Shown here piece by piece: positions 14,297-52,501 of a stretch of DNA of 64,000 bases. Position 1 is the first letter of the stretch. Every line of letters begins with the position of its first letter. The stretch covers positions 864,001 through 928,000 of the forward strand of contig CAVTLK010000005.1 of NCBI GenBank assembly GCA_963735595.1, given 5' to 3'. The DNA is from an uncultured delta proteobacterium. Its GTDB lineage: Bacteria > Desulfobacterota > Zymogenia > Zymogenales > Zymogenaceae. The notes under the pieces are model-generated. The model searched no databases. It saw only the letters and a list, made by a program, of their open reading frames with translations, and had not been told where the DNA came from. A program made the position numbers and the translations under genes.

Positions 14297-14995
14297 ATGC
14301 ACATCGGCGAGAGACTGGACTTACACATGGACCCTAATCGTATGGTCCCCAACGCGTATCTCTATCAGGCTCTTGCCGCGTCACGGGAACTCCTGGGCAA
14401 CGACGGCTTTGCCGCCGTGATAAAGAGGGCGGGTGTGATCCTGCCGGTAATGGGGCAGTATCTCGACGAAAATAGCTGGCCCCCGGCGGACATGGAGCTT
14501 ACAACGCCGGCCCGGCATTTTTCCGCGATCTTCCAGGCGATCGAGGAGGTCGGCGGCGGACGCGCCCAGATGGTCAATATCGGTATCAGGACCGCCCAGA
14601 TGGGCTTTGAGGGCCTGGGGCCGGCGATGAAGGCGACGCTGTCGGTCCTCAAGAAACTCCCCGGTTTCCAATGGCGGGCCGAAACGGTCCTCAAGGCGAT
14701 GGCCGATGACCTGCTGGACGCGAGCCCGGGCGACCGGGAAAGGCAGGCTATCCGTGTCGTGACCGATAAGGAGAAAGGGGCGATCCTCTTCATCGACCGA
14801 ACGGGCGATTCGTGCCATGGGAGGAACGGGGTGCACACCCCGGTATGCCACGTATACCGCGGGGGGATCATCGGCGCGGTAAAGCTCGCCACCGGGAAAG
14901 TCGCCAGGGTCGTCGAAACGGCCTGCATGGCCGCGGGAGACAACGCCTGTGTTTTCGAGGTCGGCTTCGAAGCGGAAGAAACAGACAAGGCGTAA
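14297..14995 (+). CDS. Stand-alone V4R-domain protein
   Basis: C-terminal SCHG...PVCH..RGGI.GA....VVETACMAAGDNACVFEV; GGAGG RBS. Confidence 0.85.
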   Translation: MHIGERLDLHMDPNRMVPNAYLYQALAASRELLGNDGFAAVIKRAGVILPVMGQYLDENSWPPADMELTTPARHFSAIFQAIEEVGGGRAQMVNIGIRTAQMGFEGLGPAMKATLSVLKKLPGFQWRAETVLKAMADDLLDASPGDRERQAIRVVTDKEKGAILFIDRTGDSCHGRNGVHTPVCHVYRGGIIGAVKLATGKVARVVETACMAAGDNACVFEVGFEAEETDKA

Positions 14996-15093
14996 GGCGA
15001 TAAAGAGAGACCGTCAGGCGTCAAGATCGGCTGCTGTGCGAATTTGAAACACTGGCGAACTGCCGATCAGATTAACTTACAACGGGGGATACG

Positions 15094-15816
15094 ATGTACG
15101 ACCGCTTGCACTTCCATCAGGATCCGAACAAGATGATACTGAACGTCTACCTTCACGGTGCCCTCCTGGCCTCAAAGGAGCTTCTCGGTGACAGCGGTTT
15201 CGCGGCAGTCATCAAGCGGGCGGAGACCTACGCCCCCGGGATGACGGCCTATCTCGACGAGCGAAACTGGCCCGCAGACGATCTAAAGTTCCAGTATCCC
15301 GCCCGGCACTACAGCGCCCTGTTCCAGGCGGTGGAAGAGGTGGGCGGCGGGAGGTCTCAGCTGGTGGCGATCGGCATCGTGACGAGCAAGTTGGGTTTCG
15401 AGGGTCTCGGGCCGTCGATGAAGGCGGCTCTGGCCGTAATGAAGAGGCTGCCGGGATACCGATGGCGGGTCGAGACGATCCTTTCGGGAATGGTCCAGGA
15501 TATGCTCAATGCCGCGCCGGAGGAGAAGCGGCTCAAAGCGATCTCACTTGAGACCGATGAGGCCCGCAGGGTATTCCGCTACGTCGATCGGAGCGGCGAC
15601 ATCTGCCACGGCAGAAACGGCGCCACGGCCCCGATTTGCCACGTCTATCGGGGAGGGTTCATCGGCGCGATAAATGGCGTTACCGGCCGTGTTCCCCACG
15701 TCCTGGAGGTGATGTGCATGGCGGCCGGGGACCCTGCCTGTGTCTTCGAAATCGATTTTGAGCCGGAGGGTGGGGGTGACGAATTGAGAGAAGGCGGAGT
15801 AGAAAATCGTGAATAG
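15094..15816 (+). CDS. Stand-alone V4R-domain protein, paralog of the upstream gene
   Basis: ICHG...PICH...EVMCMAAGDPACVFEI; colinear similarity to 14297-14995. Confidence 0.85.
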   Translation: MYDRLHFHQDPNKMILNVYLHGALLASKELLGDSGFAAVIKRAETYAPGMTAYLDERNWPADDLKFQYPARHYSALFQAVEEVGGGRSQLVAIGIVTSKLGFEGLGPSMKAALAVMKRLPGYRWRVETILSGMVQDMLNAAPEEKRLKAISLETDEARRVFRYVDRSGDICHGRNGATAPICHVYRGGFIGAINGVTGRVPHVLEVMCMAAGDPACVFEIDFEPEGGGDELREGGVENRE

Positions 15817-15872: not shown

Positions 15873-15905
15873 CAAAAAAAGGGAGGGAAATCAATTCCCT
15901 CCCTT
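15873..15905 (-). terminator. Intrinsic terminator of the glutamate synthase-like operon (possibly bidirectional)
   Basis: AAGGGAGGGAA / TTCCCTCCCTT stem with a 7-A run, between convergent genes. Confidence 0.8.
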
Positions 15906-15928: not shown

Positions 15929-17506
15929 CTATCCGAAGATCTTATCTACCTCTTTTGCGTCGATATCGCTCACCAGCGGGATGCCGCTGACCCGGGACGC
16001 CTCCGGGGTGAGCGCGGCGATGTCGTTGGTGGTGATGCGGTCGATGGCAAACTTGCGCGAGCCGGCCATGAACTGGCGCAGGCCCTGGGCGAGCCGCTCG
16101 TAATAGGTGTAGAGGCCCATGGCGCCGGTCGGTATCCGGTCGTAGTCCTTCCCGAATTTTCTCTTCAGCCCCTCGGCGGTCACGAAGACCGATTCCACGT
16201 CCTTGCCGAACCGCTCGATAAAGACGGGGGCGTCGCCGCTGTTGATCGCGTTTCCGATCGTCTTTCCCACCATGGCGGCCGCCAGCGGCGCCCGTGACAT
16301 GGCGATGGCCTTGCAGTAGGGAGCGGCGAGCGATAACCCTTTGAACATCTGGTCTTCGAGGATGAACCCGCCGGCCAGCGCGATATCAGGCACATGCTGC
16401 CCTTTCTTTGCCAGGCGGTCGCAGTAGTCCCTGGTGAGCGCCCAGAGCTCGATGGTCGGGACGCCCCATTCGTTCATCATGCGCCAGGGGCTCATGCCGG
16501 TTCCGCCGCCGGCCCCGTCAACCGTCAGGTAGTCAATCTTTGCGATGGATGAGAACTTGACCGCCCGGGCAAGGTCCACCGGCCGGTAGGCGCCGGTCTT
16601 GAGCGACACGAACTTGGCGCCGGCCTTGCGAAGCTCTTCCACGCGCGCCACGAAGCTCTCCTCGTCCACCATGCCGACCCGGGAGTGCCGCTCGAACTCC
16701 GTGAATATGCCCTTCTTGAATTCCTCGATCACGGCGGGATCGAGCGGGTCGGGCAGGACGATGTAGCCCCTCTTGGCGAGGAGCTGGGCCTTCTCGAGGC
16801 TCTTGATCTTCACCTCGCCGCCGATGTCTTTTGCGCCCTGTCCCCATTTGAGCTCAACGGCGTCCACACCGAGCTTTTCTATCGCGTACTCCTGAATCTT
16901 CAGGCGGGTGTCCTCGACGTTGGCCTGTACGACGACGGCGCCGTAGCCCTTTTCCTGCCAGTCCTTGAAGAGCTTGACGCGCCGTTTTAGCTCCGGAGAA
17001 TCAACCACCCTCCCGTTTTCGATCTTCGATTCGACGTCCATCCCGCAGACGTTCTCGCCGATGGTCAGAACCGTCCCGGTTATCGCCGAGCCGATGGCAA
17101 GCCCCTCCCAGTTGATCCCGGCGACGTTCGTCGACCCGAGGCCGCCGATAACGATCGGCAGCCGGAGTTTTATACCGCCGTTATTGCCGAGCTTCGTCTC
17201 GAGGCTGACGTTCGGGAAGATCGCCTTGTCCGAATCGGCCTCTATCCCGACGGCCCCTACGGCGGTTCCCATGATGGAAAAGTGGGAAAGGTCGATGGGG
17301 TAATCCTTCTGTGAGGCCATCGTGGAGATCCCGAAGGGCTGCGGGTAGATGACCTCGTGCCCCCGGTAGGCGCTCTTGCCGATCTCGCACATTCCGATGC
17401 AGCCGTCAACGCAGGTTACGCACATACCGCTGATGGGAGACCAGTCCCCTGCCGTCCTGTTCTTTGTGAGGGTCGCGGCCGTCGCATTATATCTCGTTAG
17501 TGTCAT
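15929..17506 (-). CDS. FMN-binding glutamate synthase family protein (stand-alone synthase domain, no amidotransferase domain)
   Basis: ELKWGQGAKDIGG, TVDGAGGGTGMSP, IALAGG; N-terminal CxxCxxxCxxxC cluster motif. Confidence 0.88.
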   Translation of the reverse strand: MTLTRYNATAATLTKNRTAGDWSPISGMCVTCVDGCIGMCEIGKSAYRGHEVIYPQPFGISTMASQKDYPIDLSHFSIMGTAVGAVGIEADSDKAIFPNVSLETKLGNNGGIKLRLPIVIGGLGSTNVAGINWEGLAIGSAITGTVLTIGENVCGMDVESKIENGRVVDSPELKRRVKLFKDWQEKGYGAVVVQANVEDTRLKIQEYAIEKLGVDAVELKWGQGAKDIGGEVKIKSLEKAQLLAKRGYIVLPDPLDPAVIEEFKKGIFTEFERHSRVGMVDEESFVARVEELRKAGAKFVSLKTGAYRPVDLARAVKFSSIAKIDYLTVDGAGGGTGMSPWRMMNEWGVPTIELWALTRDYCDRLAKKGQHVPDIALAGGFILEDQMFKGLSLAAPYCKAIAMSRAPLAAAMVGKTIGNAINSGDAPVFIERFGKDVESVFVTAEGLKRKFGKDYDRIPTGAMGLYTYYERLAQGLRQFMAGSRKFAIDRITTNDIAALTPEASRVSGIPLVSDIDAKEVDKIFG

Positions 17507-17557
17507 TCTTCACTCCTCTTCTCGTATCGGTTTGTCTATGTATTTAAATTAGTTCCG

Positions 17558-18223
17558 CTAATATGCCCGGTGCCCTTTGGCGGTCACGCTCTCCGAGCAG
17601 TGTACGCAGATCTCGCAGGTCTCCACGTGAACCAGGTTCTGGCATCCCCCGCAGAGGCCGTCCTTGAGGTTTCCCGCGGTACAGGCCCGCTCGCACACGG
17701 GGCAGATCCACTCGCAACCCCCGCAGTTACGGCATTCCTGGGGTGTGACCCCGAAGGCAGTGCCGACCTTCCGTGACGTGCCGCGCCCCACGAAGCCGAT
17801 GCCGCCCGACTGCATCTGTTCCTTACAGAAACGGACGCACTGCCCGCACAGGATGCAGTTCTTATCCTTTATCGTAAAGCGGATCTTATTGACGCCGTAG
17901 TTGGCGGCCAGGTCCTGCAGTGTCTTGGAGGTAGGGCAGGTCGAGACGAGCAGCTCGATGAGGACCTTCCTGGCCTTTCTTACCCGTTCGGAATTCGTGA
18001 GGATCTCCATACCCTCTGAGGCCGGCAGCGCGCAGGAGGCCTCGAGCGTCGAGCGGCTGCCTTTTTTCATCTCGACGACGCACACCCGGCATGCCCCGTA
18101 GGGCGTGAGGCCGGGATTGTGGCAGAGAGTGGGTATTGCGATCCCGAGGTTCCGCGCGGCCTCCAGCACCGTCGTCCCTCCGGCAACTTCGGTTGGAATC
18201 CCGTCTATGCTTAGTTTAGGCAT
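17558..18223 (-). CDS. Fe-S protein resembling the NuoG/HydA N-terminal electron-transfer domain, without a catalytic domain
   Basis: IPTLCH...GACRVC...C 2Fe-2S; CILCGQCVRFC; CRNCGGCEWICP; extra Cys-rich tail; only 221 aa. Confidence 0.87.
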   Translation of the reverse strand: MPKLSIDGIPTEVAGGTTVLEAARNLGIAIPTLCHNPGLTPYGACRVCVVEMKKGSRSTLEASCALPASEGMEILTNSERVRKARKVLIELLVSTCPTSKTLQDLAANYGVNKIRFTIKDKNCILCGQCVRFCKEQMQSGGIGFVGRGTSRKVGTAFGVTPQECRNCGGCEWICPVCERACTAGNLKDGLCGGCQNLVHVETCEICVHCSESVTAKGHRAY

Positions 18224-18236
18224 TGTCTATCCTTTT

Positions 18237-20099
18237 TTATGCAACGATGACCGCATCGAATTTACAGTTTTCCCGGCAGAGGCCGCATTTAATGCACGCG
18301 CTTTGATCGACCACGTGAACTTCCTTCTTTTTACCGGTGATCGCCTTTTCGGGGCAGTTCTTGGCGCACACCATGCAGCCGGTGCATTTTTCTTTGTCGA
18401 TCGTGTAGGTGATGAGGGCCTTGCAGACCCCCGCCGGGCAGCGATGCTGCCCGATATGCGCCTCGTACTCGTCCCGGAAATACCGTATGGTAGAGAGAAC
18501 CGGGTTTCCGGCGGTGCCCCCCAGGGCACACAGGGACGTTTCCTTGATGACGTCGGCCAGCTCCTCCAGGAGCTCGATATCGCCGCTCTTTCCGTTTCCC
18601 CCGGTGATGCCGGCGAGGATGTCGTTCATCCGGTCAAGACCCTCCCTGCAGGGGAGGCACTTGCCGCACGACTCCTCGGTGAGGAAGTTCACAAAGTATT
18701 TAGCCGTATCCACCATACAGGTGGATTCGTCCATAACGATCATGCCGCCCGAGCCCATCATCGAGCCGACGCGGGAGAGCTCGTCGAAATCGACGGGCAG
18801 ATCGAGAAGGTTTTCGGGAATACACCCTCCCGACGGCCCCCCGGTCTGGACGGCCTTGAACTTCTTGCCGTTCAAGAGGCCGCCGCCGATATCGTAGATA
18901 ATCTCACGCAGCGTAATGCCCATCGGCACCTCAACGAGGCCGGTATTCCTGATCTTGCCGACCAGCGAGAATATCTTGGTGCCCTTGCTGCCGGCGGTGC
19001 CAATATCCGCGTACCATCCCGCCCCCTTGTTGATGATCAGCGGGACGTTAGCCCACGTCTCGACGTTGTTGAGGTTGGAGGGCTTATTGTGGAGCCCCTT
19101 GACGACGGTATGGATATGTTTCTGGCGGGGCTCCCCGATCTTTCCCTCCAGGGAGGCCATGAGGGCGGTGGATTCTCCGCAGACGAACGCCCCTCCGCCC
19201 CTGGCGATCACGACGTCGAAGTCGAAGCCGGAGCCGAGTATATCGGCTCCGAGCAGGCCGTATCCCCGCGCCTGATCGAGGGCAACGCGCAGGTTCTTGA
19301 CGGCCAGGGGATATTCGTGCCGCACGTAGACGTAGCCGTGCGCGCTGCCGATGGCGTACGCCCCGATGATCATGCCTTCCAGAACGCTGTGCGGGTTTCC
19401 CTCCAAGAGGCTCCTGTCCATATAGGCGCCGGGGTCCCCCTCGTCGGCGTTGCAGATGACGTAGCGGGTCCCGTTTGACGTTGGGGCATTGCGGCATGAC
19501 TCCCACTTGTCGCCCGTCGGGAAGCCTCCCCCGCCGCGGCCCCGCAGGCCCGATTCCTTTATCTCCCGGATGACCTGCTCCGGCTTCATCTCGAACAGGG
19601 CCGTGGGGAGGGCGGAATACCCGCCCAACGCGATGTAATCTTCGATACTGGTAGGATCCAGGAGGCCGTTGCTGCCGAATATGAGCCGCCGCTGTTTCTT
19701 GTAAAACGGTACGTCGTGTTCGTGCTGCACGGTTTGTCCCGAGTCCGAATCGGAATAGAGGAGACGATCGATAACGACTCCTTTACCGATGGTCTCCGTG
19801 AGTATTTCGGCAACGTCCTGTGGATTTACCCGGGTGTAGAATGTTTCCTGGGGGTGTATGGTGACAAGCGTCCCGTATTCACATAGACCGTGGCAGCCGG
19901 TGAGTTTCAGTCCGACCCGGTCGGCCATCTTCAGGCGGTCGATTTCATCGAGAAATGCGGCATGAACGAGTTCGCACCCGCACCCATGACAGCCCGTTCC
20001 GCCGCATACGCTTATCGTGGGTTTCTCTGACCGACTATCCTGCACGAGCTGTTTTTGCAGCCCTTTCAGGTCATCCGGTGATTGGAGCTTCTTTATCAT
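18237..20099 (-). CDS. NuoF/HydB-like NADH- and FMN-binding subunit
   Basis: GLRGRGGGGFPTG, CNADEGDPGAYM, GGPSGG, ESCGKCLPCREG, SLCALG, HxxxxxCPAGVC, two C-terminal 4Fe-4S motifs, N-terminal thioredoxin-like 2Fe-2S. Confidence 0.93.
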   Translation of the reverse strand: MIKKLQSPDDLKGLQKQLVQDSRSEKPTISVCGGTGCHGCGCELVHAAFLDEIDRLKMADRVGLKLTGCHGLCEYGTLVTIHPQETFYTRVNPQDVAEILTETIGKGVVIDRLLYSDSDSGQTVQHEHDVPFYKKQRRLIFGSNGLLDPTSIEDYIALGGYSALPTALFEMKPEQVIREIKESGLRGRGGGGFPTGDKWESCRNAPTSNGTRYVICNADEGDPGAYMDRSLLEGNPHSVLEGMIIGAYAIGSAHGYVYVRHEYPLAVKNLRVALDQARGYGLLGADILGSGFDFDVVIARGGGAFVCGESTALMASLEGKIGEPRQKHIHTVVKGLHNKPSNLNNVETWANVPLIINKGAGWYADIGTAGSKGTKIFSLVGKIRNTGLVEVPMGITLREIIYDIGGGLLNGKKFKAVQTGGPSGGCIPENLLDLPVDFDELSRVGSMMGSGGMIVMDESTCMVDTAKYFVNFLTEESCGKCLPCREGLDRMNDILAGITGGNGKSGDIELLEELADVIKETSLCALGGTAGNPVLSTIRYFRDEYEAHIGQHRCPAGVCKALITYTIDKEKCTGCMVCAKNCPEKAITGKKKEVHVVDQSACIKCGLCRENCKFDAVIVA

Positions 20100-20611
20100 T
20101 TTGCGGACCTCGTCGCATCCTTCCTGTATTCGTCCAGGAGCTTCTTGATTTTTCCTGAGCTCATCTTCGCGTGATATCGTCCGTCCACGACGACCACCGG
20201 GCCGAGGGCGCAGGCCCCGAGGCAGTTGACGCTTTCCAGGGAAAACAGACCATCGGCGGTGGTACTACCGTTTCCAATTCCAAGTTGCCGCTCCATTTCC
20301 TCCAGCACCGACCTTCCGCCCCTCACGTGGCAGGCCGTCCCCAGGCACACGGTTACGGTGTGTTTACCCCGGGGGGTGAGGCTGAAGGCTTTGAAGAACG
20401 TCGCAACGCCGTATACCTGGATGAGGGAAAGGTTAAGCTTGCCCGCGACCTGCTTCAGGGCCGCCTCCGGCAGGTAACGATACTGGGCCTGGATATCCTG
20501 GAGTATCGCGATGAGGTTGTCCGGCGTTGCCTCGTAGTCGCCAATAACCCGCGTTACGAAATCCGCGGTCTGGCTTGCGTCATCTGCTCTGCTCATTAGG
20601 TTTTCCGCCAT
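20096..20611 (-). CDS. NuoE/HydC-like 2Fe-2S subunit
   Basis: VYGVATFF, VCLGTACHVRG, CLGACALGP; 4-bp overlap with the next gene. Confidence 0.92.
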   Translation of the reverse strand: MAENLMSRADDASQTADFVTRVIGDYEATPDNLIAILQDIQAQYRYLPEAALKQVAGKLNLSLIQVYGVATFFKAFSLTPRGKHTVTVCLGTACHVRGGRSVLEEMERQLGIGNGSTTADGLFSLESVNCLGACALGPVVVVDGRYHAKMSSGKIKKLLDEYRKDATRSAK

Positions 20612-20853
20612 TTCGGTTTACTTATTTGAAGTGTTTTACGCGTATATCGAGCTTTGCGGTTCCTGCCTGCCGGTATATCCTATCAATTGACGATAATCAG
20701 ATTCGCGCGTGTCTGTAGAGATACCGTGCATGTCGGTCAATGGAGTTCTATGATCGGCAATCGATTGCCAATATTTCATACCGGTGACGGCCTGTCAAGA
20801 ACAAAATGCATAAGAGTATTAAATAATTACCTTATCATGACGAATTGTTGATG

Positions 20854-21045
20854 CGGTAATTATACCGTAAAAATTGATAATATCGGCAAACATGCCGTAT
20901 CATTACCGCAGTGCGAGGCGGAACGGATGAAATACGAAGGGAAACTGTCCGTTATCAGTGGGAATTCCCATAACCCGTCGCTCAAAAACGACTTAGGTAC
21001 CGGCAATACTGCCGATAATGCCCTTGACTACCGGTAAATTTTCCG
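20854..21045. promoter_or_regulatory. Cluster of 14-bp CGGYAA-N2-3-TDCCG palindromic boxes, candidate NrpR operators
   Basis: CGGTAATTATACCG (20854), CGGCAAACATGCCG (20884), CGGCAATACTGCCG (21001), CGGTAAATTTTCCG (21032); two pairs spaced 30-31 bp. Confidence 0.65.
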
Positions 21046-21059
21046 GTACCGTTATATAC

Positions 21060-22073
21060 ATGAGCGAAAAAATGGAAAAGAAGAGACTTGCAGTCCTCCG
21101 GTTTCTGGCAGATTCCGACGGCCCCCAGTCGAGCCCCGCAATCGCCGAGCATCTGACGGCCTCCGGCCATGAGATGAGCGAGAGGACGATCCGCCTCTAT
21201 CTCCAGGAACTGGATGAAGAGGCGCTCACCGAAAACCACGGCAAGCGGGGCAGGACGATCACGGAGAAGGGGAAAGCCGAGTTGGCAAATGCCCGTGTTT
21301 ACGATAAGGTGGGGTATCTGGCGGCAAAGATAGACCGGATGATGTACCGGATGACTTTCAACCTCCGGGAGAGGGCGGGCACCGTCGTTATAAACCTCAG
21401 CATCATTTCGAAAGACATGCTGGCCACCGCCGTTCCGCTTCTTTCGAGCGTCTTTCAGGCGGGTTACTCGATGGGCAGTCTCGTCGGTTTATTCGGCCCT
21501 GGAGAGCGAATCGGGGAAGTGACCATTCCACAGGACGCCGTGGGTATCGGCACGGTCTGCTCGGTTACGGTCAACGGTGTGCTGCTTTCCGAGGGGATAC
21601 CGACGGTCTCCCGGTTCGGGGGTCTCCTGGAAATCAGGAGCGGTAAATATACCCGTTTCGTGGAGCTGATCCACTACGAGGGGACGACGCTTGACCCCCT
21701 CGAGGTCTTCATCCGCAGCCGCATGACCGACTATTTCGGCGCCACGACAACCGGAAGTGGAAGGATCGGCGCGAGTTTTCGGGAGGTCCCGGCCGAGAGC
21801 CGCGCCAGCGTTATCGATATATCGGAGCGGCTGGAACAGGCCGGCTTGAGCGGTTTCATCTCAATCGGGTGGCCGGGCCAGCCCCTCATGGAGATACCCG
21901 TCGGGGACGGGAGGATCGGCATCGTCGTTATCGGGGGTCTCAATCCCGTGGCGATCCTCGAGGAAAAGGGCATCCACGTCCAATTCACCGGGGCTCTGGC
22001 GGGTTTGCTGGACTACGGAGCGCTCTACCACTACCGGGAGATGGAGGACAGGGCCGGCGCGCTGTTACGATAG
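21060..22073 (+). CDS. nrpR: Nitrogen regulator NrpR (wHTH plus NRD domain)
   Basis: MSERTIRLYLQELDEEALT...GRTITEKG wHTH; GTVVINLS, VCSVTVNGVL, GTTLDPLEVFI, GGLNPVA. Confidence 0.9.
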   Translation: MSEKMEKKRLAVLRFLADSDGPQSSPAIAEHLTASGHEMSERTIRLYLQELDEEALTENHGKRGRTITEKGKAELANARVYDKVGYLAAKIDRMMYRMTFNLRERAGTVVINLSIISKDMLATAVPLLSSVFQAGYSMGSLVGLFGPGERIGEVTIPQDAVGIGTVCSVTVNGVLLSEGIPTVSRFGGLLEIRSGKYTRFVELIHYEGTTLDPLEVFIRSRMTDYFGATTTGSGRIGASFREVPAESRASVIDISERLEQAGLSGFISIGWPGQPLMEIPVGDGRIGIVVIGGLNPVAILEEKGIHVQFTGALAGLLDYGALYHYREMEDRAGALLR

Positions 22074-22160
22074 TCAGCCGCCGTTTGGCCGGGGGATTGC
22101 TCCGGTGGCGGTCAATTGATATTGCCCATCAAGGGTAAACGGTGTCTCAGGGGAGCCAGG

Positions 22161-23285
22161 ATGACGCGTATTTACGGCGATGCGAATCTCTCACTCTTTG
22201 CAGGCCCCAAGGCGCTCGGGCTGATCAGGAACGGAGGCTTTTCGGCATCCTCTGTCACGACGATCCTCGGGGCCGCGGGCGGCCCCAAATGGCTGGTGCT
22301 GGCCGGGCTTGACCGGGCGATCTTTTTTTCGTGGCTTATCCATTCTAAGACCCCGGTCAGGCTCGTCGGCTCGTCCATTGGAGCATGGCGGTTTGCCGCC
22401 ATTGCCCAGGGCGGGCGGGCTATCGCGGCCCATGAGGCGCTCGGGGAGGCCTACATCCATCAGCGTTATGACAGGAAACCCTCTGCCCAGGATATCACGG
22501 ATGAGGCCGTCAGGATCATGGATACCTACCTCACCGACGGCAGCGCGGGGTCGATATTGGCCAACCCCCGTTTTCTCCTTTCGGTCATTACGGCCCGGGG
22601 ACGCGGGCCGTTTTCTTCGGTCAGGCGGCCAGCCGTTGCCGCGGGTATGCTGTGTGCCGGAATCGCCAACGCGCTTTCCCGCAGCAACCTGGCCCGATTC
22701 TTCGTCCGGGTCATCTTTGCCGACCCCCGAAACGGCGGGCCGATGAGCGGGGCGGCGGGCTTCGCGCAGGATCCGATACCCACCGAATCGGTCGAGCTTA
22801 CCGCGGATAACCTGCGTGGCGCCGTCCTTGCCTCAGGATCGATCCCGGTGGTCATGTCGCCGACAACCGGCATTGCCGGGGCCGCGCCGGGCCTCTATTG
22901 GGACGGCGGGCTGGTCGACTACCACGTCACGATCCCCGATTCACCGATGCGGGCCGGGGAGGGAATTGTCCTGTTTCCCCACTACGTTGACCGGATCATA
23001 CCGGGATGGTTCGATAAACACCTCCCGCGGCGCAGCCCGAAATCCTCGGCGCTTGACCGGTTGCTGCTGGTCGCCCCCTCGCGCGAGTTCGTCGGGTGTC
23101 TTCCCTACGGCAAGATACCCGACCGGGCGGACTTTAAATTATTGGCAGGCCGCGACAGGGACCGAATTGCCTATTGGGAAAAGACGGCGGCCGAAAGCGA
23201 GCGGCTGGGAGACGAGTTCCTGGAGATGGTGGAGTCCGGAAAGATCAGGGAGCGGGTAAGGCCCTTCCCGACGCCCGGGGCGTGA
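22161..23285 (+). CDS. Patatin-like phospholipase family protein
   Basis: GAAGGPKW, GSSIG nucleophile elbow, ASGSIP, DGG. Confidence 0.82.
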   Translation: MTRIYGDANLSLFAGPKALGLIRNGGFSASSVTTILGAAGGPKWLVLAGLDRAIFFSWLIHSKTPVRLVGSSIGAWRFAAIAQGGRAIAAHEALGEAYIHQRYDRKPSAQDITDEAVRIMDTYLTDGSAGSILANPRFLLSVITARGRGPFSSVRRPAVAAGMLCAGIANALSRSNLARFFVRVIFADPRNGGPMSGAAGFAQDPIPTESVELTADNLRGAVLASGSIPVVMSPTTGIAGAAPGLYWDGGLVDYHVTIPDSPMRAGEGIVLFPHYVDRIIPGWFDKHLPRRSPKSSALDRLLLVAPSREFVGCLPYGKIPDRADFKLLAGRDRDRIAYWEKTAAESERLGDEFLEMVESGKIRERVRPFPTPGA

Positions 23286-28521: not shown

Positions 28522-30367
28522 TTAGAACGCGAAACTCTGGTCGGCTATCTCGAGGTAGGCGTCTTCCTCGGATTTGAGCTGCGCGACCTTGCCCTTGGTG
28601 CGGGGCAGGATGTTTCCGATGTAGAACTTGGCGGCGTTGACCTTGCCGGCGTAAAACGCCGTCTCGACGCTGTCGTCCACCTTCTTGGCCAGTTCGTCGC
28701 CCTTGAGCCCGCCGAGCTTCGGGTAGGCGATGTTCATCTGCCACAGGAGCTGCCAGCCTATGACGAGGTCGCCCATCAGCTCCATGAGCGGGACGGCGTT
28801 GCCGAAGATGACGCCCATCTTGCCCTTGCCCAGGAGGCCCTGCTGGAAGGCAACGGCGTCTTCCATGCCGGCCATTGCTTCCTTGACCGCCGCGGCATAG
28901 GGTTTGAGGTCGGCGATCTTGTCGGCGGCGTCCGTTACCTTCTTGACCTCTTCCTTGAAGAAGGCGAAGTTGACCAGCCCGTTGAGGAGCATCTTGCGGA
29001 AGGTGAAGTCCATGGCCTGGATGCCGTTGGTGCCCTCATAGAGGGACGCAATCTTGCAGTCGCGAGCGTACTGCTCCACGGGGTAGTCCCGCGTGAAGCC
29101 GTAGCCGCCGTAGACCTGGATCGCCTGGCCGGTGATGTCCCAGACCATGTCGGTCTCGTAGCCCTTGCAGATGGGGATGAGCAGGTCCAGGAGCCCCTGC
29201 CAGCGGTCCTTCTCCGCGCCCTCGGTGGTCTCGACGTTATCGATGCAGTATCCCATGTAATACTGGAGGCCGCGCATCCCCTCGACGTAAGCCTTCATGC
29301 GGGTGAGCATGCGGCGCACGTCCGGGTGCTGGATGATCGGAACGCCCTGTGCTGTCCTTCTCCTGCATCTTGGTGTAATGGACGCCCTGGACGCGCTCCT
29401 TGGCGTATTTGACGGCGTGCAGGTAGGCCGCCGAGCTCGTGGACAGGCCCTGGAGGCCGACGAACATGCGCTCCTCGTTCATCATCATGAACATGATCTT
29501 CATGCCCTTCATCCGGTCGCCGAGCATCCAGCCCACGCATTTGCCGTTGTCGCCGAAAACCAGCGAGGTGGTCGGGGAGCCGTGGATGCCCATCTTCTCC
29601 TCGATGCCGGCGCAGTAGAGGTCGTTGGGCGCTCCGGGCGTCCCGTCGGCCTTGGGGAGGAATTTGGGGACGATGAAGATCGAGATGCCCTTGGTTCCCG
29701 GCGGGTCGCCTTCGATGCGGGCCAGCACCATGTGGATGATGTTCTCGGAAAGGTCATGCTCGCCGGAGGTGATAAAGGTCTTGTTGCCGACAATGGAGTA
29801 TGTCCCGTCGGGGTTCGGGGTGGCCTTGGTCTTGAGCGCCCCCACCTCAGAGCCGGCGCCCGGCTCCGTGAGGCACATGGTGCCCAGCCACTGTCCCTCG
29901 TACATCTTGTAGAGATAGGTATTTTTCTGCTCCTCGGTCCCGAAGACCTCGATCATCCGGGCCGACCCGTGGGAAAGCCCCGGGAAAGCCACGAAGGCGA
30001 AGTTTGAGCCGACGAAGATCTCCATACACGACATATAGAGGGAATAAGGCAGGCCCTGTCCGCCGACTTCGGGATTTTCGGCCATGGCGATCCATCCGCC
30101 CGCCTTGTACGCCTCCAGTGCCTTCTTGAAGCTCGGCGGGGTCGTGACGCTCTTGGTCTTGGGGTCGTAGACGGCGCCGATCTTATCGCTCTCGACATAG
30201 GTGGGCTCGATATAGTTGACGGCCATCTTCTCGGCCTCGTCCAGCACCATCTCGAAGACGTCTTTGCTGTGGTCGGCGTACCTTGGCCGCTCGCAGAGCT
30301 TATCGATGCCCAGCTGCTCGTAGAGGACGAATCGGGCGTCCCGCATATCCATGATAAGGTTGCTCAT
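28522..30367 (-). CDS. Long-type acyl-CoA dehydrogenase (indel near 29345)
   Basis: GTMCLTEPGAGS, KTFITSGEHD, EEKMGIHGSPT, QVYGGYGF, LYEGTNGIQA. Confidence 0.93.
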
Positions 30368-44460: not shown

Positions 44461-44536
44461 GCGCCCGTAGCTCAGGGGATAGAGCAACGGACTTCTAATC
44501 CGTGGGTCGCAGGTTCAATTCCTGCCGGGCGCGCCA
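44461..44536 (+). tRNA. tRNA-Arg (anticodon TCT), integration target
   Basis: Cloverleaf: GCGCCCG acceptor stem, ACGGA-CTTCTAA-TCCGT anticodon arm, GGTTCAATTCC T-loop, encoded CCA. Confidence 0.97.
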
Positions 44537-44597
44537 AAATCCTAATGATCTCAATTGGTTGAAAATCACCCCAACCCATTTTTTTGCGTATTTTGGA

Positions 44598-45710
44598 TTA
44601 AAACGCGCCATGTGTCACTTTTGTGTCACTTTTTTTGGCGTTACCGCCGAGATATTTGGATAGCTTCTGCACCGCTTCTTTCCCATCGGACTCATCCACG
44701 CTGTTATATCGGAGGAACATCGACATAGTCTTGTGACCCGTTTGGGCCATTATAACCGAATCATGGACACCGGCCTTTCTCATGTTGGTTACAAAGCAGT
44801 GACGCAGGTCGTGTATCACAAAACCGGCAATATCGGCTCGCTTACAGGCATTCTTGAAAGCGGTTCGAATACTCCTTACAGGTCTGCCGTCATTATAGAT
44901 GAAGACAAACTTGTGAGAAAGGCTCCTCATTTTGCTTGCCTCGATGAGAACCGATTTGACCTCATCAGTCAGGAATATGCGACGCTTTTGCTTAGTCTTT
45001 GTGTCGGCGTATCCGAGATCGACGTGTTCTTCCTTCATATTTACCTTATCCCAGGTAAGGGTTAGGATTTCATTGATCCTCATTCCCGTATGGTAGGCAA
45101 CAAGAACGATCGACCGTATCGGTTCATGAAGCTCCTCGAAAAGCTTTCGATATTCCTCTGATGAAAGAGTCCTGTCTCTCTTGTTCTGTTCTGGCAGCAT
45201 CGGGATGCCTTTACATGGATTACGCAGAACTAACTCGTCCCTAATTGCCAGGTTGAACGCTCGCCTCATGAGGGCAAATTCTCGGTTAATTGTGGCGGGC
45301 CTGGTGGGTATCCCCCGACGACTCGTTTCTTTTAGCCGTTTCTGTTGGAATCTTTCAATGTCGGACGGTAATATCTTTGAGGCTTTTAGGTTACCGAAAT
45401 GCCTCCTGAGGACTCCTGATCTCTGAACGTCATCCTTATAAGAAAACTTCGCTCTCGGACCAGGTTGCTCAAGGTACCAATCGATGAGTTGGCTAAAAGC
45501 TAGGTCTTTAGCATACTGGCTTCCAGTCCGTTCCCTCATTTCAAACTCGGCAATCTTGTTAGCAAGAAAAGACTTGGCAGCCGTCTTATCTCCGACCTTC
45601 TCTCTCGCGTAGACGATCTTCCCGTCTAAATCCCTTTCGATCGGGTACCGGACAAACCAAGGTCCACTCGGCTTCCCTTCCTTGTTTCTGTATCTCTGAA
45701 AAACGCCCAT
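44598..45710 (-). CDS. Tyrosine recombinase/integrase
   Basis: HTGMRINE, K, HDLRH, GH..MFLRY catalytic residues. Confidence 0.95.
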   Translation of the reverse strand: MGVFQRYRNKEGKPSGPWFVRYPIERDLDGKIVYAREKVGDKTAAKSFLANKIAEFEMRERTGSQYAKDLAFSQLIDWYLEQPGPRAKFSYKDDVQRSGVLRRHFGNLKASKILPSDIERFQQKRLKETSRRGIPTRPATINREFALMRRAFNLAIRDELVLRNPCKGIPMLPEQNKRDRTLSSEEYRKLFEELHEPIRSIVLVAYHTGMRINEILTLTWDKVNMKEEHVDLGYADTKTKQKRRIFLTDEVKSVLIEASKMRSLSHKFVFIYNDGRPVRSIRTAFKNACKRADIAGFVIHDLRHCFVTNMRKAGVHDSVIMAQTGHKTMSMFLRYNSVDESDGKEAVQKLSKYLGGNAKKSDTKVTHGAF

Positions 45711-45820
45711 TGTTTTCTCCTTTCTCATCTAGTTGATGTGAAAGGTATGGTAGAGCTGGGCGTAAGGTCTAATATCACCTCCTTTCTGAGGAAGATAATA
45801 GCACCCTTGTCGCCCAGGTG

Positions 45821-46006
45821 TCAATTTTCTATCTTCTTATTCTTTTCTATATAGTTGTCTATGTCATGAATATCGAACCGTAGCGCTCCTCGAAGTTTAA
45901 TATGTGGGATAGGAAACAGACCTTGTGCAATTTCGTTCCTGATTGTTTGCGGTCTTTTGCCGATATAATGAGCGAGTTCTTTTATGTTCAGTAGTCTTTT
46001 TTCCAC
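45821..46006 (-). CDS. Excisionase/AlpA-like HTH protein
   Basis: RLLNIKELAHYIG...TIRN...IPHIKL.GALRFD; directly upstream of the integrase. Confidence 0.85.
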   Translation of the reverse strand: MEKRLLNIKELAHYIGKRPQTIRNEIAQGLFPIPHIKLRGALRFDIHDIDNYIEKNKKIEN

Positions 46007-46158
46007 TTCTAACCTCGACTATTTCTCGTGAGCCAATTGCTTACCTTTAGATACCTTTTCCCTAATAGAACTCAAGAGAGAGTCATGCTCCTCTCTAAAG
46101 CCCGCATCTTCTGTAAGCGGCTCTCCCAAGTCAAAGGCCGTGAAATATCAGAGATAGA

Positions 46159-46869
46159 CTAAACGCCCGGAATCTCATCCCAGGTACGACCGTCAAGTAT
46201 CCGACCGCTTTTCTTCTTATTTCTTCCGCCCCACTGTTTGAAAAAGAATGGTACTCCTTCTCCTAAACATTGATCACGGACTTCAGTGACCCATTCTCTT
46301 AGCATCGGCCTAGACTTAGGACCTGACTCCCCGCCAACGATAACCCAATCAATTCCGTTCAAATTGAGATTACCCATGGGACCTAGAAGAGGTTCGAGCG
46401 AAAGAAACTTGATTCTTGCAGGGGTATCTATCAAATGGCCGATTCTGTCTATGTAGTCCCTATTTTCTACACTCACGCCCATCCAGACATTATCGGGCCA
46501 TGGGAGCTTTGAGCTTAATTCCAATAAGCGAAGAGGCCGTTTCGTGAGAACCTGAAAACGATGTTGTTTCGCTTTTGTCATAACGCCAAAAACCCTAAGA
46601 ATGAAATCCGTTGGGACGTCATCGTGAAAGAGATCGCTCATGGAATTGACGAAAATAGTTTTAGGTCTTTTCCATCTCAAAGGGATATCCAGCATATGTT
46701 CATGGAGTGTTGGTTGAAATCCGTTTCTATAATTTGGCTGTCCCATGGCCTTGAGTCTCATTGACAGCTTTTCTGCGTAGCAGTTCTTACAACCCAGGCT
46801 GATTTTTGTGCATCCTGTTATCGGGTTCCATGTAGCCTCGGTCCACTCTATCTTTGAATTGGTTGACAT
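46159..46869 (-). CDS. DUF5131 (phage Gp37/Gp68) family protein
   Basis: [58 protein letters not shown]. Confidence 0.92.
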
Positions 46870-46897
46870 TTTCCTCCTCCTTCTAAATCGTCTTTGA

Positions 46898-47125
46898 TTA
46901 TCTCCACTCAATAAAGTTGGGCATATCTTTCTTGGGCACGTCCAGGATTTCAAGGACACTGTATGCGGTGTCGATGTCGATCGGAAGAAGATTAAGAGCC
47001 CTGCAAAAAGTCCGATAATCGATGTCGCATCTCCGTCTCTGAAACGCCCCATTACCATCGTAAAAGTAGCGCTTTCGGTTCTTCCTCAGAAAGGACAGAA
47101 CTTCCGGCCTCAAATGGGGTCTCAT
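46898..47125 (-). CDS. Hypothetical protein, 75 aa
   Basis: Fills the gap between the tubulin-like gene and DUF5131; GGAG RBS. Confidence 0.55.
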
Positions 47126-47149
47126 TATTTATCTCCGTTCTACGATGTA

Positions 47150-48251
47150 TTATTTCGTCTTATCCTTGTTGAAGAAGAAATCAAAATCAAGTTCAGTCTT
47201 TTTTATTGTCTTTTTTTCCTCGAACACCTTTATTTCTGATTTCGTCTCCTCGATGAGTCCCTGGAGTTTCTTTATGGGGAGACTCAGCCCGCTGAAGATG
47301 GAATGTACGCGAATACGATCCCGATAGGCGTGATCGGCGTAAATCCCCCAATAGACCAGGTTCGCTTTTGAGACCTCCTTGATGTACGTGAGCGCGTAGC
47401 TGATGTCTTTCTCCGCTATCTTCTTGAATAGCGAGGGAGCGCCTCTGAGCACAATCCCTACCTTGTCGGCGTCAGAGAAATCAAAATCAGAGGCATAGAG
47501 TCCCTCTGTTATGCCCCGCCTCAGGCTCTCAGCTAACCGGTCCCTGCTGGTAAACTCCTTCACGGACATCTCCCCCATGGTTGCACAGCCCGGTGTTCGG
47601 ATGATCTTTCGATAATCGGCGGGATCGAGGGAGTATACCAGTCCCTGTTGCGAGCTCATCTTATTGATGATGTGGAATGTATGGGCGATATCTTTATTAG
47701 ACCTCTCCCAGAAGGTGCCGATGGAAAGGTTCGGATACTTCTTCGAGATCTTTGCGTTATCGATAATAATGATCGGTTTGATGATGCTCGAATCATAAAC
47801 CTGTTTTATCGCCATCAGGCAATTCTTCTTGGTCTCGGTGTCTTCGGATTCAAGGGGAAGGGTGATGATGATCCCGACTTCAATCCCAAGTTCGTGAAGT
47901 ATTTCTGCCATGGGGAGTAATCCCCCCTGTCCCTGTTCCACCCCCGCCCCCGACACAGAGCATGGCGTACTCGGACTTGTCTATTCCATGCAGCCTAATA
48001 AAGTCTCTGATCGTATCTGAGTTGTTCCTGAAGGCGAGCTCCCCCACCTTCATGTCCCTCCCGGCTCCTCCCGTCGTATCTTTAAGCAGCAGTTTATGTC
48101 CTTTGGGGACAGTGATTTTCCCTAGGTCGGTCTCGGCGGTATTGCAGACGTATCCGTCGTATCCGTATTCTTTATGAAACGCGGCGCAGACTCGGCTTCC
48201 CCCGTAGCCCAGACCAAATAGGCGGAAATCTATCGAGTGCTTGTCCTTCAT
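47150..48251 (-). CDS. Tubulin/FtsZ-superfamily GTPase (TubZ-like), one indel in a G-run near 47925
   Basis: GLGYGGSR, NTAETDL, GGAGRD...G, GGGGGTGTGG signature, TLP..E, IDNAK, LDPADY T7 loop, FSGL. Confidence 0.9.
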
Positions 48252-48264
48252 CGTTCTCACTCCA

Positions 48265-48540
48265 TTATCCGCTATTCGTGATTTCATCCAAAATAGCTGA
48301 AAGTGCCTTCCCGGAATCCGAGAGCCTCAGTAATATACTGTTGCCTACCCTCGTCTCCTCGATAAATGTCCCGCCCCTCAATCGCGAGAGGGCATCCCTC
48401 AATCGTGAGGTAGTGAGGCCGGATACCTGGGACGCGGACTCCTTATTGAGCACTCCCTTTTCGACGAGCGCGGATATTACCCTCCGGTCATCCTCATGGA
48501 GTTTACCGGACATCTCAAGGAGACATGTCTTACACAACAT
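48265..48540 (-). CDS. Small winged-helix DNA-binding protein (TubR-like adaptor candidate)
   Basis: SGLTTSRLRDALSRL...FIEE.RVGNS.LLRLSDSG wHTH; 13 bp upstream of the GTPase. Confidence 0.75.
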   Translation of the reverse strand: MLCKTCLLEMSGKLHEDDRRVISALVEKGVLNKESASQVSGLTTSRLRDALSRLRGGTFIEETRVGNSILLRLSDSGKALSAILDEITNSG

Positions 48541-48554
48541 TTTTCACCCAATCT

Positions 48555-48801
48555 ATTAATTGATACATTAACTGATTAATTGATATATCCGACGCAAGCA
48601 GCCTTTCCCTTTCGATTCTGATTCGATTCTGCCTTCGGTTCGATTCTGATTTTGGTTTTTCGCCAGAATCGAAAGGTCTCCCGTCCTCTCAAGCGGATTT
48701 CGATTTATCAAAACTCCAATGTTCCTATATAATTAGATCAAGAGAACATATTCCTGATGTCCCACGTTTTTATTCTGATTTCGATTCGATTCTGATTCTG
48801 G
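48555..48801. repeat. Iteron-like repeat array (centromere candidate)
   Basis: TTCGATTCTG at 48611, 48622 and 48639, inverted at 48664, second block 48771-48801; ATTAAYTG three times at 48555-48582. Confidence 0.7.
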
Positions 48802-48870
48802 CCATATTTATTCTTTTTTTATCTTCTATTCTTTTTCTTATCTTCCTATTATCATTACCCTCTCTTCTTT

Positions 48871-48918
48871 CTATTTCTATTTCTATTTCTATTTCTATCT
48901 CTATTTCTATCTCTATTC
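48871..48918 (+). repeat. Hexamer tandem repeat (CTATYT) x8 in a pyrimidine-rich tract
   Basis: ctattt x4, ctatct, ctattt, ctatct, ctattc. Confidence 0.9.
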
Positions 48919-49085
48919 TTTTCACCGTTCTTTACTCATCTCCATTTCCTCACTTCCAGCTTCCGTAACGTCGTCCCGCGGGGCGTGGGGGCGAAGGAGG
49001 CGAGGGAGGGGGGAGGGATAAAGACCTGACCCTCCATAACAGAACCCTATCTAATATCTATCCTACCTATGGGATTCTTTCTCTT

Positions 49086-49292
49086 TCATATTCTTCGATA
49101 AGCAGCCTCATCGTTAGTCTTCTTCTCTTCAGGACGCACAAATGTTATCGGATTCATTTCATGCCACAGACACCTTATGTACTCATTGACCTGAACGTAC
49201 GTATTCAACTTCTTACAGAGGAAGTATGAATACCCTTCTTGATCAATTTGCATGAGTCTTCCGTGCACGCATCGTTCGCATTTAACCGTCAT
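49086..49292 (-). CDS. Small Cys-rich protein
   Basis: CERC...C...C..H; GAGGTG RBS. Confidence 0.55.
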   Translation of the reverse strand: MTVKCERCVHGRLMQIDQEGYSYFLCKKLNTYVQVNEYIRCLWHEMNPITFVRPEEKKTNDEAAYRRI

Positions 49293-49335
49293 TTCAACCA
49301 CCTCGAATATATTTATATATGTGAGAACAACAGCA

Positions 49336-49460
49336 CCTTCTGTTTTCTCATTTCGGAGAAAACAGAAGGCAGGGAGGGCGTGACTGTGCGAGCGGACCCC
49401 CCGATAAAGCTTTCGGCGAAGCCGAAAGATTTACGATAGGGGGTCTGCGTGGGCACGCCC
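49336..49460. other. Two adjacent strong hairpins (origin-like)
   Basis: 14-bp perfect stem at 49336-49369; 85-nt imperfect stem at 49376-49460 topped by CTTTCGGC-GAA-GCCGAAAG. Confidence 0.75.
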
Positions 49461-49575
49461 GACCGCGTATACAGCAACGAGCAACGCGTCCCATTACATA
49501 TACCTATCGACCACATCAAACGAGAGACCTTTTATATCTGCACCACCGAGAGCCTTTTCAACCCTTTCCTTAGTC

Positions 49576-51442: not shown

Positions 51443-51869
51443 CGGTAAGTTCCTTGGCCGGCTCTTTAGCCCTTCCCCGGATCAGAGACTTCAGAATAGA
51501 AAGAGGTTGTTTTGCTTCAATCCGGGAGACCTTTCTCCCGTCCCAGGTTATCTTCAAGTCCTTTCGGCAAATGAGGACGCCCGATTCATCGGATCGATCG
51601 AGGCAACCAGGACGAGAGCAAATTACTCTGTGGCAGACGCCACAGAATCCCTCAAGGTCATCTAAGCTCTTTATAAAATGCCCACACCCTGCAGGAACAA
51701 CGAGGTCCATGTTGTTGAGGAATATCCCTCTCTCGCTTACCTCAAATGAGCTTACACGACCTCCGACCGGTATAACCCTTCCGTTTACCAATACGACATT
51801 GCCGTAGTATCTGGCAACAAATGGTTCGTTGAATTTCCGTGAGAGATATCCGTAGAGCATGGAATCCAT
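51417..51869 (-). CDS. Cys-rich zinc-finger-like protein, possibly joined to the upstream membrane ORF
   Basis: GCGH...CGVCHRVIC...C...C; overlaps the ATPase start. Confidence 0.6.
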   Translation of the reverse strand: MDSMLYGYLSRKFNEPFVARYYGNVVLVNGRVIPVGGRVSSFEVSERGIFLNNMDLVVPAGCGHFIKSLDDLEGFCGVCHRVICSRPGCLDRSDESGVLICRKDLKITWDGRKVSRIEAKQPLSILKSLIRGRAKEPAKELTDEKRKLLR

Positions 51870-51916
51870 AGTGGTAAACGTGTATTCTTTACCGTGTTCA
51901 TCCGTCGTAAATCCCC

Positions 51917-52201
51917 CTAAAAGATACTAGCGGCCCAGCCAAAAAAGGCCTTCCCGAGCATGACGAAAAAGGTGATCACGCCGGGAACGAACGAGAATAC
52001 GATGATGAGGAGGGTGATCACCAGGCCAAGCTTCATTAAACCGAATAAGAACCGTATCAGCTTCTTGAAGAAATCGTCATCGTCCGGACCCTTTGGAAAC
52101 TCGAAGGGAGTAGTGTAGTTGAGCTCGTCTTGTGGGAAGTCCGGATTCTTATAGAAGTCGCCGTATCCCTTGTCCGACGATCCCGAGTTATTGAATGTCA
52201 T
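51917..52201 (-). CDS. Small membrane protein
   Basis: MTFNNS... acidic N-terminus then a long hydrophobic segment. Confidence 0.55.
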   Translation of the reverse strand: MTFNNSGSSDKGYGDFYKNPDFPQDELNYTTPFEFPKGPDDDDFFKKLIRFLFGLMKLGLVITLLIIVFSFVPGVITFFVMLGKAFFGWAASIF

Positions 52202-52484
52202 TGTTCCCCCCCTCCTGAAAGGTAATATTGCCAAACCTGTCTCTCTTGATCTTCTTCTCTCCAGAATCTGATGGGCTGCTATCTGAATTCGACGGTGAAT
52301 AGGAGTTGTCCTTATTTTGTTCCTGAGGTTCCCCGCCGAAAAAGCCCTCAAAGAACCCAAATGTAAAATCAAGAGTTGCTTCCACCGGCGCAGCAACGAC
52401 CCTTCCGGCAGTAACTCCAAGCGTGTGAGCGAAACAGCCCGAAACTAAGAGAGACGCCAAAACCAGGATCGTGAGTCTCTTCAT
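52188..52484 (-). CDS. Small lipoprotein
   Basis: MKRLTILVLASLLVSGC lipobox. Confidence 0.65.
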   Translation of the reverse strand: MKRLTILVLASLLVSGCFAHTLGVTAGRVVAAPVEATLDFTFGFFEGFFGGEPQEQNKDNSYSPSNSDSSPSDSGEKKIKRDRFGNITFQEGGNNDIQ

Positions 52485-52501
52485 GTTTCTACCCCCTTTA
52501 T

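Follow-up and report, generated by a model that had tools for sequence, protein, structure and literature searches.

A conserved Type 2 Bfu operon with a divergent GltB-like FMN barrel in a member of the Zymogenaceae

The window analysed here is a 64,000-nucleotide stretch from an uncultured member of the Zymogenaceae (assembly GCA_963735595.1, contig CAVTLK010000005.1, positions 864,001 to 928,000). It carries four genes, bfuC, bfuB, bfuA and glt, that apparently encode a conserved Type 2 system of the Bfu family with a new kind of catalytic subunit, so far undescribed; no description of a bfuC-bfuB-bfuA-glt operon was found in the literature searched, which lacked most subscription papers. 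The proposed catalytic subunit, Glt, is a divergent flavin mononucleotide (FMN) (β/α)8 barrel that resembles the synthase domain of GltB. We tentatively favour a reading in which the system reductively aminates 2-oxoglutarate with free ammonia, drawing on NADH and reduced ferredoxin and spending no ATP; we infer the complex itself, its substrate, nitrogen donor, direction and coupling from the evidence set out below. This reading stands ahead of four others, of which a different substrate for the barrel comes first, a borrowed amidotransferase and an oxidative role follow together, and an uncoupled electron inlet comes last.

The operon and its electron module

All four genes lie on the minus strand and, judged by sequence, form one operon: bfuC (HydC/NuoE-like, 20096 to 20611), bfuB (HydB/NuoF-like, 620 residues, 18237 to 20099), bfuA (an Fe-S subunit of 221 residues, 17558 to 18223) and glt (525 residues, 15929 to 17506), with intergenic gaps of −4, 13 and 51 nucleotides. 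The nrpR gene (21018 to 22073, plus strand) diverges from them, and all five open reading frames are intact. The likely starts of bfuC and nrpR are at 20596 and 21060; the homologues in the closest named relative, a Candidatus Zymogenaceae assembly (locus L001, Glt 92% identical), begin to align at residues 6 and 15 respectively. A first-pass annotation of this DNA had described such a tight operon divergent from nrpR, and the open reading frames bear it out. It had also noted that the operon holds no amidotransferase or GltD gene, which Pfam confirms, but the absence does not extend to the host genome, which has a split glutamate synthase with its own amidotransferase elsewhere.

BfuB combines an N-terminal 2Fe-2S_thioredx domain with Complex1_51K, SLBB, NADH_4Fe-4S and Fer4 domains (Pfam). 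It carries the ligands of clusters B5 (C32, C37, C69, C73) and B1, of B3 and B4 at the C-terminus, and of the B2 site (C461, T499, H548, C554, C559), which is described in the accessible part of PMC12318220 as holding zinc in most structures. This ligand pattern agrees with an alignment to 9mqx_B and with that in the available supplement of the Bfu survey (PMC9304861, Supplementary Fig. 9). Compared with Supplementary Fig. 10 of the same source, the motifs of the NADH/FMN site (DEGDPGAF/YMD and GxGAFVCGE) are of the bifurcating type; GAYM is found within ADEGDPGAYMD (residues 218–228) and GGPSGG at 420–425, and BfuB has each of the five cluster sites by which bifurcating homologues are told apart from non-bifurcating ones. 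BfuC is a 2Fe-2S_thioredx protein with ligands for the C1 [2Fe-2S] cluster (C89, C94, C130, C134).

BfuA has Fer2_4 and Fer4 domains only, with ligands for the A1 [2Fe-2S] cluster and two [4Fe-4S] clusters, A2 and A4. The Pfam scan and ligand check reveal no A3 motif, no A5 and no catalytic domain, whether of H-cluster, NiFe or molybdopterin type. As far as the accessible text of the survey goes (PMC9304861), Type 2 Bfu enzymes are those whose BfuA lacks A3, A5 and a catalytic domain, extra subunits handling the third substrate. On these sequence features bfuCBA is a Type 2 member of the family. The first-pass annotation was thus right about the long HydB-type subunit with its GAxM and GGPSG motifs, about the domain content of the 221-residue subunit and about the HydABC-type architecture. 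The missing catalytic site on which it remarked is real but is no anomaly, because Type 2 enzymes are defined by it; the unusual part is the partner.

The best solved matches (PDB) are WorB for BfuB (775 bits) and WorA for BfuA (129 bits), both in 9mqx, the WorABCSL (Wor-Bfu) enzyme of Acetomicrobium mobile. From what the available parts of PMC9304861 and PMC12318220 describe, that enzyme too has a short BfuA with A1, A2 and A4 but no A3, and its catalysis takes place on a separate subunit fed through A4, as we propose for Glt. The two systems differ in that the third-substrate subunit is tungstopterin WorSL there and an FMN barrel here, where there is no WorS-like Fe-S subunit and the operon is NrpR-linked. 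WorA further possesses a four-Cys zinc finger and a docking helix (PMC12318220, in part), whereas BfuA ends in a Cys-rich tail (C177, 181, 191, 194, 203, 206, 209) with 7–8 Cys in 67 of 69 sequences. In its accessible portion the Bfu survey lists no nitrogen compound among third substrates and no glutamate-linked Bfu, and leaves 17 clades unassigned, its Supplementary Table 1 giving enzyme types rather than the members of those clades; the word glutamate is absent from the available main and supplement text (PMC9304861).

The operon recurs widely. The genome scan gave at least 592 relatives among 602 stretches, and the 80 loci kept, the base for all counts of loci carrying the operon, come from Chloroflexota, Planctomycetota, Aminicenantes, Zixiibacteriota, Bacteroidota, Bacillota, Acidobacteriota, other phyla and two archaea. 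The four genes stand in order in 65. Contig ends truncate 14 of the remainder, and the last (L027) has no BfuC match. In 77 loci bfuA is directly upstream of glt, the remaining three having at most 288 nucleotides of upstream DNA. Since the order is kept so often, the arrangement cannot be put down to chance. The synteny expected from the first reading of the sequence therefore holds for the four genes but not for nrpR, which is adjacent in only 7. Other recurrent neighbours are glutamate dehydrogenase (GDH, 14), a sigma-54 response regulator (14), a HisF paralogue (7) and GlnA (6); there is no amidotransferase among the recurrent neighbour clusters. The seven loci with the HisF paralogue, located within the operon or next to it, are from Dehalococcoidia (L006, L007, L008, L010, L033, L035, L059), and in several of them the paralogue follows an NrpR-type operator. 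In the sigma-54-linked loci (L042:2237-3085, L052:3102-4347 and similar ones) BfuC has an extra C-terminal part and reaches about 280 residues; 5' of it lies a small Cys-containing reading frame with no Pfam match, whose cluster is found in 16 loci.

The BfuBs take two forms. Among 70 that could be scored, 34 are short like that of the window (one being a frameshifted long form), and 36 end in a GltD-like Fe-S/FAD (flavin adenine dinucleotide) domain that replaces the ferredoxin-type B3/B4 domain; the His/Cys pattern of the B2 site is kept in 69. The ferredoxin linkage put forward earlier thus fits the window, with its B3 and B4, but is not universal, since about half of the homologous operons carry the GltD-like NAD(P)H domain instead. 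Like the long-BfuB relatives, the Nfn-Bfu/StnABC transhydrogenases (9bov, 9n5u, 8oh5) join a GltD-like FAD/NADP(H) domain to a Bfu core. There, however, BfuA carries the domain and the third substrate is NADP(H), whereas in these relatives it takes the place of the ferredoxin-type domain of BfuB; the BfuB of the window has no such domain.

BfuB phylogeny does not define the Glt-linked enzyme, because the Por- and Fdh-linked BfuBs of the host nest among the Glt-linked ones (FastTree, with no named reference BfuBs). The host has two further Bfu sets (G000 C1:569471-574997 and C1:656941-663755), one of which adjoins pyruvate oxidoreductase-like genes; the other includes a gene resembling formate dehydrogenase, together with a BfuB-GltD fusion disrupted by a frameshift. 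Tree distances over 69 rows correlate for all pairs (Glt-BfuA rho 0.65, Glt-BfuB 0.65, BfuA-BfuB 0.59); their use for choosing the partner subunit was dropped, shared ancestry being enough to explain these values.

The Glt barrel and its relatives

Glt matches the Pfam family Glu_synthase (PF01645) weakly, at 41.8 bits over residues 279–395 only. An NCBIfam scan assigns it to no family, and PDB searches with the sequence or its alignment return no natural relative, only designed TIM barrels and unrelated chains. A profile of 63 Glt homologues aligns with the canonical GltB2 of the host (hhalign 95.9%, E 5e-9), to which Glt is only 24% identical. Mapping by sequence from the Glt profile through host GltB2 to Azospirillum GltB places E886, Q909, K931, K937, G941/G942, K999 and T1030 of GltB on E151, Q194, K220, K226, G229/G230, K303 and T336 of Glt, all invariant in 63 of 63 homologues. 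R957 corresponds to R246, kept in 62, with an equivalence uncertain by one position. We take this set of GltB residues, E886 to T1030, to bind FMN and 2-oxoglutarate, and E978, which falls on Glt E283 (E in 58 of 63), presumably couples the site to the glutaminase. The idea that Glt corresponds to the missing central domain of GltB was dropped, because the FMN-site residues are kept.

The [3Fe-4S] motif CX5CX4C is not present in Glt, whose only Cys residues are 29, 32, 36, 40, 154, 362 and 398; the first four form an N-terminal motif, C29-x2-C32-x3-C36-x3-C40, kept in 62–63 of 63 homologues. The description of Glt as a glutamate synthase domain therefore holds for the residues of the FMN and 2-oxoglutarate sites and fails on the weak family match and the lost cluster motif. 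Likeness to Azospirillum GltB (1ea0/6s6s) and to archaeal-type split GltB2 lies in the FMN barrel and these site residues. Glt differs in having no amidotransferase, central or GXGXG domain, in its N-terminal four-Cys motif, and in its proposed electron inlet, which is BfuABC and not GltD or free ferredoxin. An amidotransferase domain and an ammonia tunnel are required in glutamate synthase, as stated in the accessible part of PMC8097209, and neither is found in the Glt chain or the operon. We conclude that by these defining features Glt is not a glutamate synthase, though it likely works like their synthase site.

The AlphaFold model (mean confidence, pLDDT, 83.4; residues 1–35 and loops 225–229 and 334–342 under 50) is predicted to be an FMN-type barrel. 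Its longest structural alignment among 50 rows is with the GltB FMN domain (351 residues, 6s6s 780-1189, Z 20.4, root-mean-square deviation (rmsd) 3.7).

Glt belongs to a wider family. Of 151 genomes sampled from the host phylum, 85 contain homologues, for the most part as genes standing alone. The best 30 loci divide by identity: each of the 7 that reach at least 64%, counting the window, has bfuA immediately upstream, whereas the 23 at 56–60% all lack it within 1.5 kb, a few of these flanks being short. In 20 larger regions Bfu genes are found in 2, and the surroundings of Glt include nrpR in 4, glnA in 4, split glutamate synthase genes in 5 and gdh in 2. Within the host family an orthologous BfuA is confined to the genus of the window (3 of its 4 genomes), and in two other genera (L121, L123) a stand-alone Glt paralogue of about 50% identity is divergent from nrpR with the same promoter layout. 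The simplest reading is that the Bfu-linked operon replaced a stand-alone glt gene in the host family, so that the two likely carry out the same chemistry with different electron inlets. This exchange, with the operator evidence described below, is what the window contributes. Elsewhere Bfu-linked and stand-alone paralogues stand side by side (L005:7001-10781, L114:6171-12955, L115:4149-10544), and L115 has a bfuCBA set, not followed by glt, that is divergent from a 59% Glt paralogue adjoining gdh.

The proposed reaction and its alternatives

In the favoured mechanism, high 2-oxoglutarate would lift NrpR off its operator, tying synthesis of the enzyme to accumulation of its substrate. BfuB would then accept a hydride from NADH at its FMN and two electrons from ferredoxin at B3/B4, merging them, as expected for the family, into four mid-potential electrons at about −0.39 V. 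These would run along B1-A1-A2-A4 and reach the FMN of Glt by way of either a metal centre in the Cys-rich BfuA tail or the four-Cys cluster at the Glt N-terminus, which would replace the lost [3Fe-4S] cluster. There, ammonia from solvent would add to bound 2-oxoglutarate and FMNH2 would reduce the imine. The net reaction would be 2 2-oxoglutarate + 2 NH4+ + NADH + 2 Fd(red) → 2 glutamate, with no ATP; in relatives with the GltD-like BfuB domain, NADPH would stand in for ferredoxin. The first-pass annotation had proposed the synthase domain as the catalytic head of the complex, forming glutamate from free ammonia with NADH/ferredoxin bifurcation or confurcation, a view that the present evidence supports in part.

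Energetics were computed with −0.28 V for NADH and −0.50 V for ferredoxin, the values given in the accessible part of PMC9304861, and with an assumed E0' of −0.135 V for 2-oxoglutarate/glutamate. For NADH alone the equilibrium lies near 0.1–1 mM NH4+, and NADH with ferredoxin is still exergonic at 1 µM. A repressor released by 2-oxoglutarate, as archaeal NrpR is from DNA, suits an enzyme that consumes 2-oxoglutarate; together with the energetics this favours confurcating, ATP-free reductive amination.

A number of findings weigh against this reading, and they are taken up here with the alternative that each suggests. The first group concerns the substrate. By fold, α-hydroxy-acid oxidases and type 2 isopentenyl diphosphate isomerases outscore GltB (Z 24–25.5 against 20.4; for the hydroxy-acid oxidases/dehydrogenases, rmsd 3–4 over about 300 residues at 11–16% identity), so the fold does not fix the substrate. 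GltB S859 is G124 in Glt and Q943 is an invariant E231; R273 and R276 are invariant with no GltB counterpart, and a segment is inserted near the active-site loops relative to GltB2. With the low identity to GltB2, these features would suit a barrel that serves as the Bfu catalytic head for some other substrate or product, such as another 2-oxo acid, an imine, or 2-oxoglutarate reduced to 2-hydroxyglutarate. We regard this as unlikely, though less so than the other alternatives. FMN-dependent α-hydroxy-acid oxidases have a catalytic His-Arg pair after strand 7, whereas Glt has no such pair and no FMN_dh match (Pfam); its segment after strand 7 reads DGAGGGTG, as in GltB, and its QGAK and GGTG loops are of GltB type. 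In addition glnA, gdh, nrpR and glutamate synthase genes are repeatedly found in the vicinity, and loops and gene context together point to 2-oxoglutarate and glutamate.

The second group concerns the nitrogen donor. The largely kept E283, as the equivalent of E978, could point to an amidotransferase partner, and a canonical split glutamate synthase, complete with amidotransferase, is encoded in the host (C5:653357-658503, GltB1 and GltB3 genes). A search for nitrogen genes in 50 of the 80 operon-bearing genomes, most of them incomplete, found glutamine synthetase in 48. Glt could be a glutamine-dependent synthase that borrows an amidotransferase encoded elsewhere, from split GltB1/GltB3 or from a HisF/HisH-type pair, the latter in keeping with the seven HisF-linked loci. 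This too is improbable. Canonical Glu_synthase was found in 17 of the 50 genomes and GXGXG and GltB1-like amidotransferase matches in 14 each, leaving 36 with no GltB1-like and 36 with no GXGXG match, with the same caveat on completeness. Neither is detected in the closest relative (G001), nor, with canonical Glu_synthase, in G032, a one-contig chromosome of 3.8 Mb; and the recurrent neighbours of the operon include no amidotransferase. The lack of a GltB-type amidotransferase in most operon genomes favours free ammonia over a borrowed one, other donors being possible. No glnA was found in the host assembly. This was considered as support for a glutamine-free route and rejected, since 9 of 9 family relatives have the gene and synteny between host (G000 C2:856836) and G001 (L083:5239-7210) breaks in mid-gene just before it; a recent deletion or a gap in the assembly probably explains the absence.

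The third group concerns direction and rate. Many operon hosts are presumably peptide fermenters, and a GDH query also matched in 33 of the 50 searched genomes. At micromolar ammonia the imine may form too slowly. No operator-like site lies before amtB, glnA or canonical gltB2, so that NrpR control appears to be local and need not mean nitrogen starvation. The enzyme might run oxidatively, from glutamate to 2-oxoglutarate and ammonia in amino-acid fermentation, with low-potential electrons driving the uphill step to NAD+. A gdh neighbour in 14 of the 80 loci, the lack of a detected NrpR in 37 of the 50 searched genomes, and the reversibility of Bfu enzymes (PMC9304861, accessible part) agree with this, which we rate about as improbable as a borrowed amidotransferase. 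In the window, a repressor released by 2-oxoglutarate would turn the operon on as the product of oxidation accumulates, and in known Bfu wiring the third substrate is the mid-potential partner, which suits imine reduction.

The last group concerns coupling. Half of the BfuBs have no B3/B4, with the two forms intermixed on the tree (FastTree), and the barrel does not need a Bfu module, given the 23 homologues that have no bfuA nearby. Glutamate might then be formed by the same chemistry but without coupling, BfuABC being a mere inlet for NAD(P)H or ferredoxin and a functional stand-in for GltD. The GltD/NfnA-like domain of the long BfuBs, the stand-alone paralogues and the sufficiency of NADH alone above about 1 mM NH4+ are in keeping with such an inlet. 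This is the least probable of the four alternatives: the B2-site pattern persists in nearly all BfuBs, and that of the window retains every site that separates bifurcating from non-bifurcating homologues.

If confurcating reductive amination is correct, a Bfu enzyme that aminates 2-oxoglutarate would link the energy coupling of bifurcation to biosynthesis. Energy-starved anaerobes could assimilate ammonia without the ATP cost of glutamine synthetase, and the supply of glutamate would be explained in genomes with no detectable canonical GltB (33 of the 50 searched). A broader proposal, which we hold to be more doubtful than the reaction itself, is that, next to GDH and the glutamine synthetase-glutamate synthase pathway, the system represents a third and widespread way of assimilating ammonia, ATP-free, glutamine-free and confurcating (NADH with ferredoxin or NADPH), that pulls reductive amination at low ammonia, and that the barrel typifies a large family, so far unrecognised, of Fe-S/FMN enzymes resembling glutamate dehydrogenase. 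The system would also be a test of whether free ammonia is enough for a GltB-type synthase domain to function by itself, and the natural swap of the ferredoxin-type for the GltD-like BfuB domain offers a direct probe of Bfu mechanism.

Regulation and neighbouring genes

NrpR of the window is of the type with a single winged helix-turn-helix (HTH) and NRD1/NRD2 domains (Pfam HTH_12 and NRD1_2). A sigma-70-type operon promoter (TTGACA-17-AATATT, 20770 to 20798, minus strand) is kept in L001, L121 and L123, and directly downstream of the bfuC −10 box is a palindrome, GGCA-N6-TGCC (20756 to 20769), that we predict to be the NrpR operator. It is close to GGAAN6TTCC, the NrpR consensus of Methanococcus and Methanocaldococcus in the accessible part of PMC2723118, and promoter and palindrome are both kept in L001 while the flanks diverge.

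With a relaxed pattern, whose background is 0.17 per kb of genome, such a site is present in 10 of 12 nrpR-linked loci against 2 of 51 without nrpR. The pattern was relaxed after six positive loci had been seen, so that L121, L123, L125 and L128 form the independent check, and related genomes are not independent. No site occurs in the scanned parts of nrpR-linked L002 and L003; L035 has an exact GGAA-N6-TTCC. A sigma-70-type promoter faces nrpR (TTGATA-18-TATCAT, 20874 to 20903, plus strand), and a pair of shorter-spaced palindromes (CGGYAA..TRCCG type, 20853 to 20897, starts 31 bp apart) overlaps its region. A second such pair, likewise 31 bp apart, lies just 5' of the likely nrpR start (21001 to 21045) and is predicted to be autoregulatory. 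A genome-wide scan for short-spaced palindromes gives about 50 scattered matches and is uninformative outside the cluster.

The HTH and NRD1/NRD2 domains and the operator-like palindrome at the promoter are shared with the NrpR of Methanococcus and Methanocaldococcus (PDB 3nek; PMC2723118, in part). The present protein differs in being bacterial, with a sigma-70-type promoter and an apparently local regulon, and in the four further palindromes with spacing shorter by 2 bp. NrpR occurs in 13 of the 50 searched operon genomes. The NrpR control put forward earlier thus finds a probable operator at the bfuC promoter of the window but does not extend to most operons; NrpR is one of several regulators of the Glt-Bfu system, and its occurrence follows the Glt family, not the Bfu module.

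A terminator-like hairpin with a T run lies 3' of glt (15884 to 15904, minus strand), a consensus match only, of a kind found at chance level in the region, and two tandem V4R-domain genes (14297 to 15816) converge on it. Small genes resembling this pair, by appearance and with no domain scan, are found 3' of the canonical split glutamate synthase cluster (G000 C5:658864-660815). A patatin-like gene (22116 to 23285) closely follows nrpR on the same strand and is not among the recurrent neighbours of the operon. Genes elsewhere are split by frameshifts, among them an acyl-CoA dehydrogenase-like gene (28522 to 30367 of the window) and amtB (G000 C2:854051-855362), which suggests an indel-prone assembly. 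Further along, a tRNA-Arg (44461 to 44536) is followed by a reading frame of 376 residues (44598 to 45728), an integrase by position only, and the G+C fraction falls from about 0.58 to 0.40–0.55 over 44461 to 64000, which is probably an integrated element.

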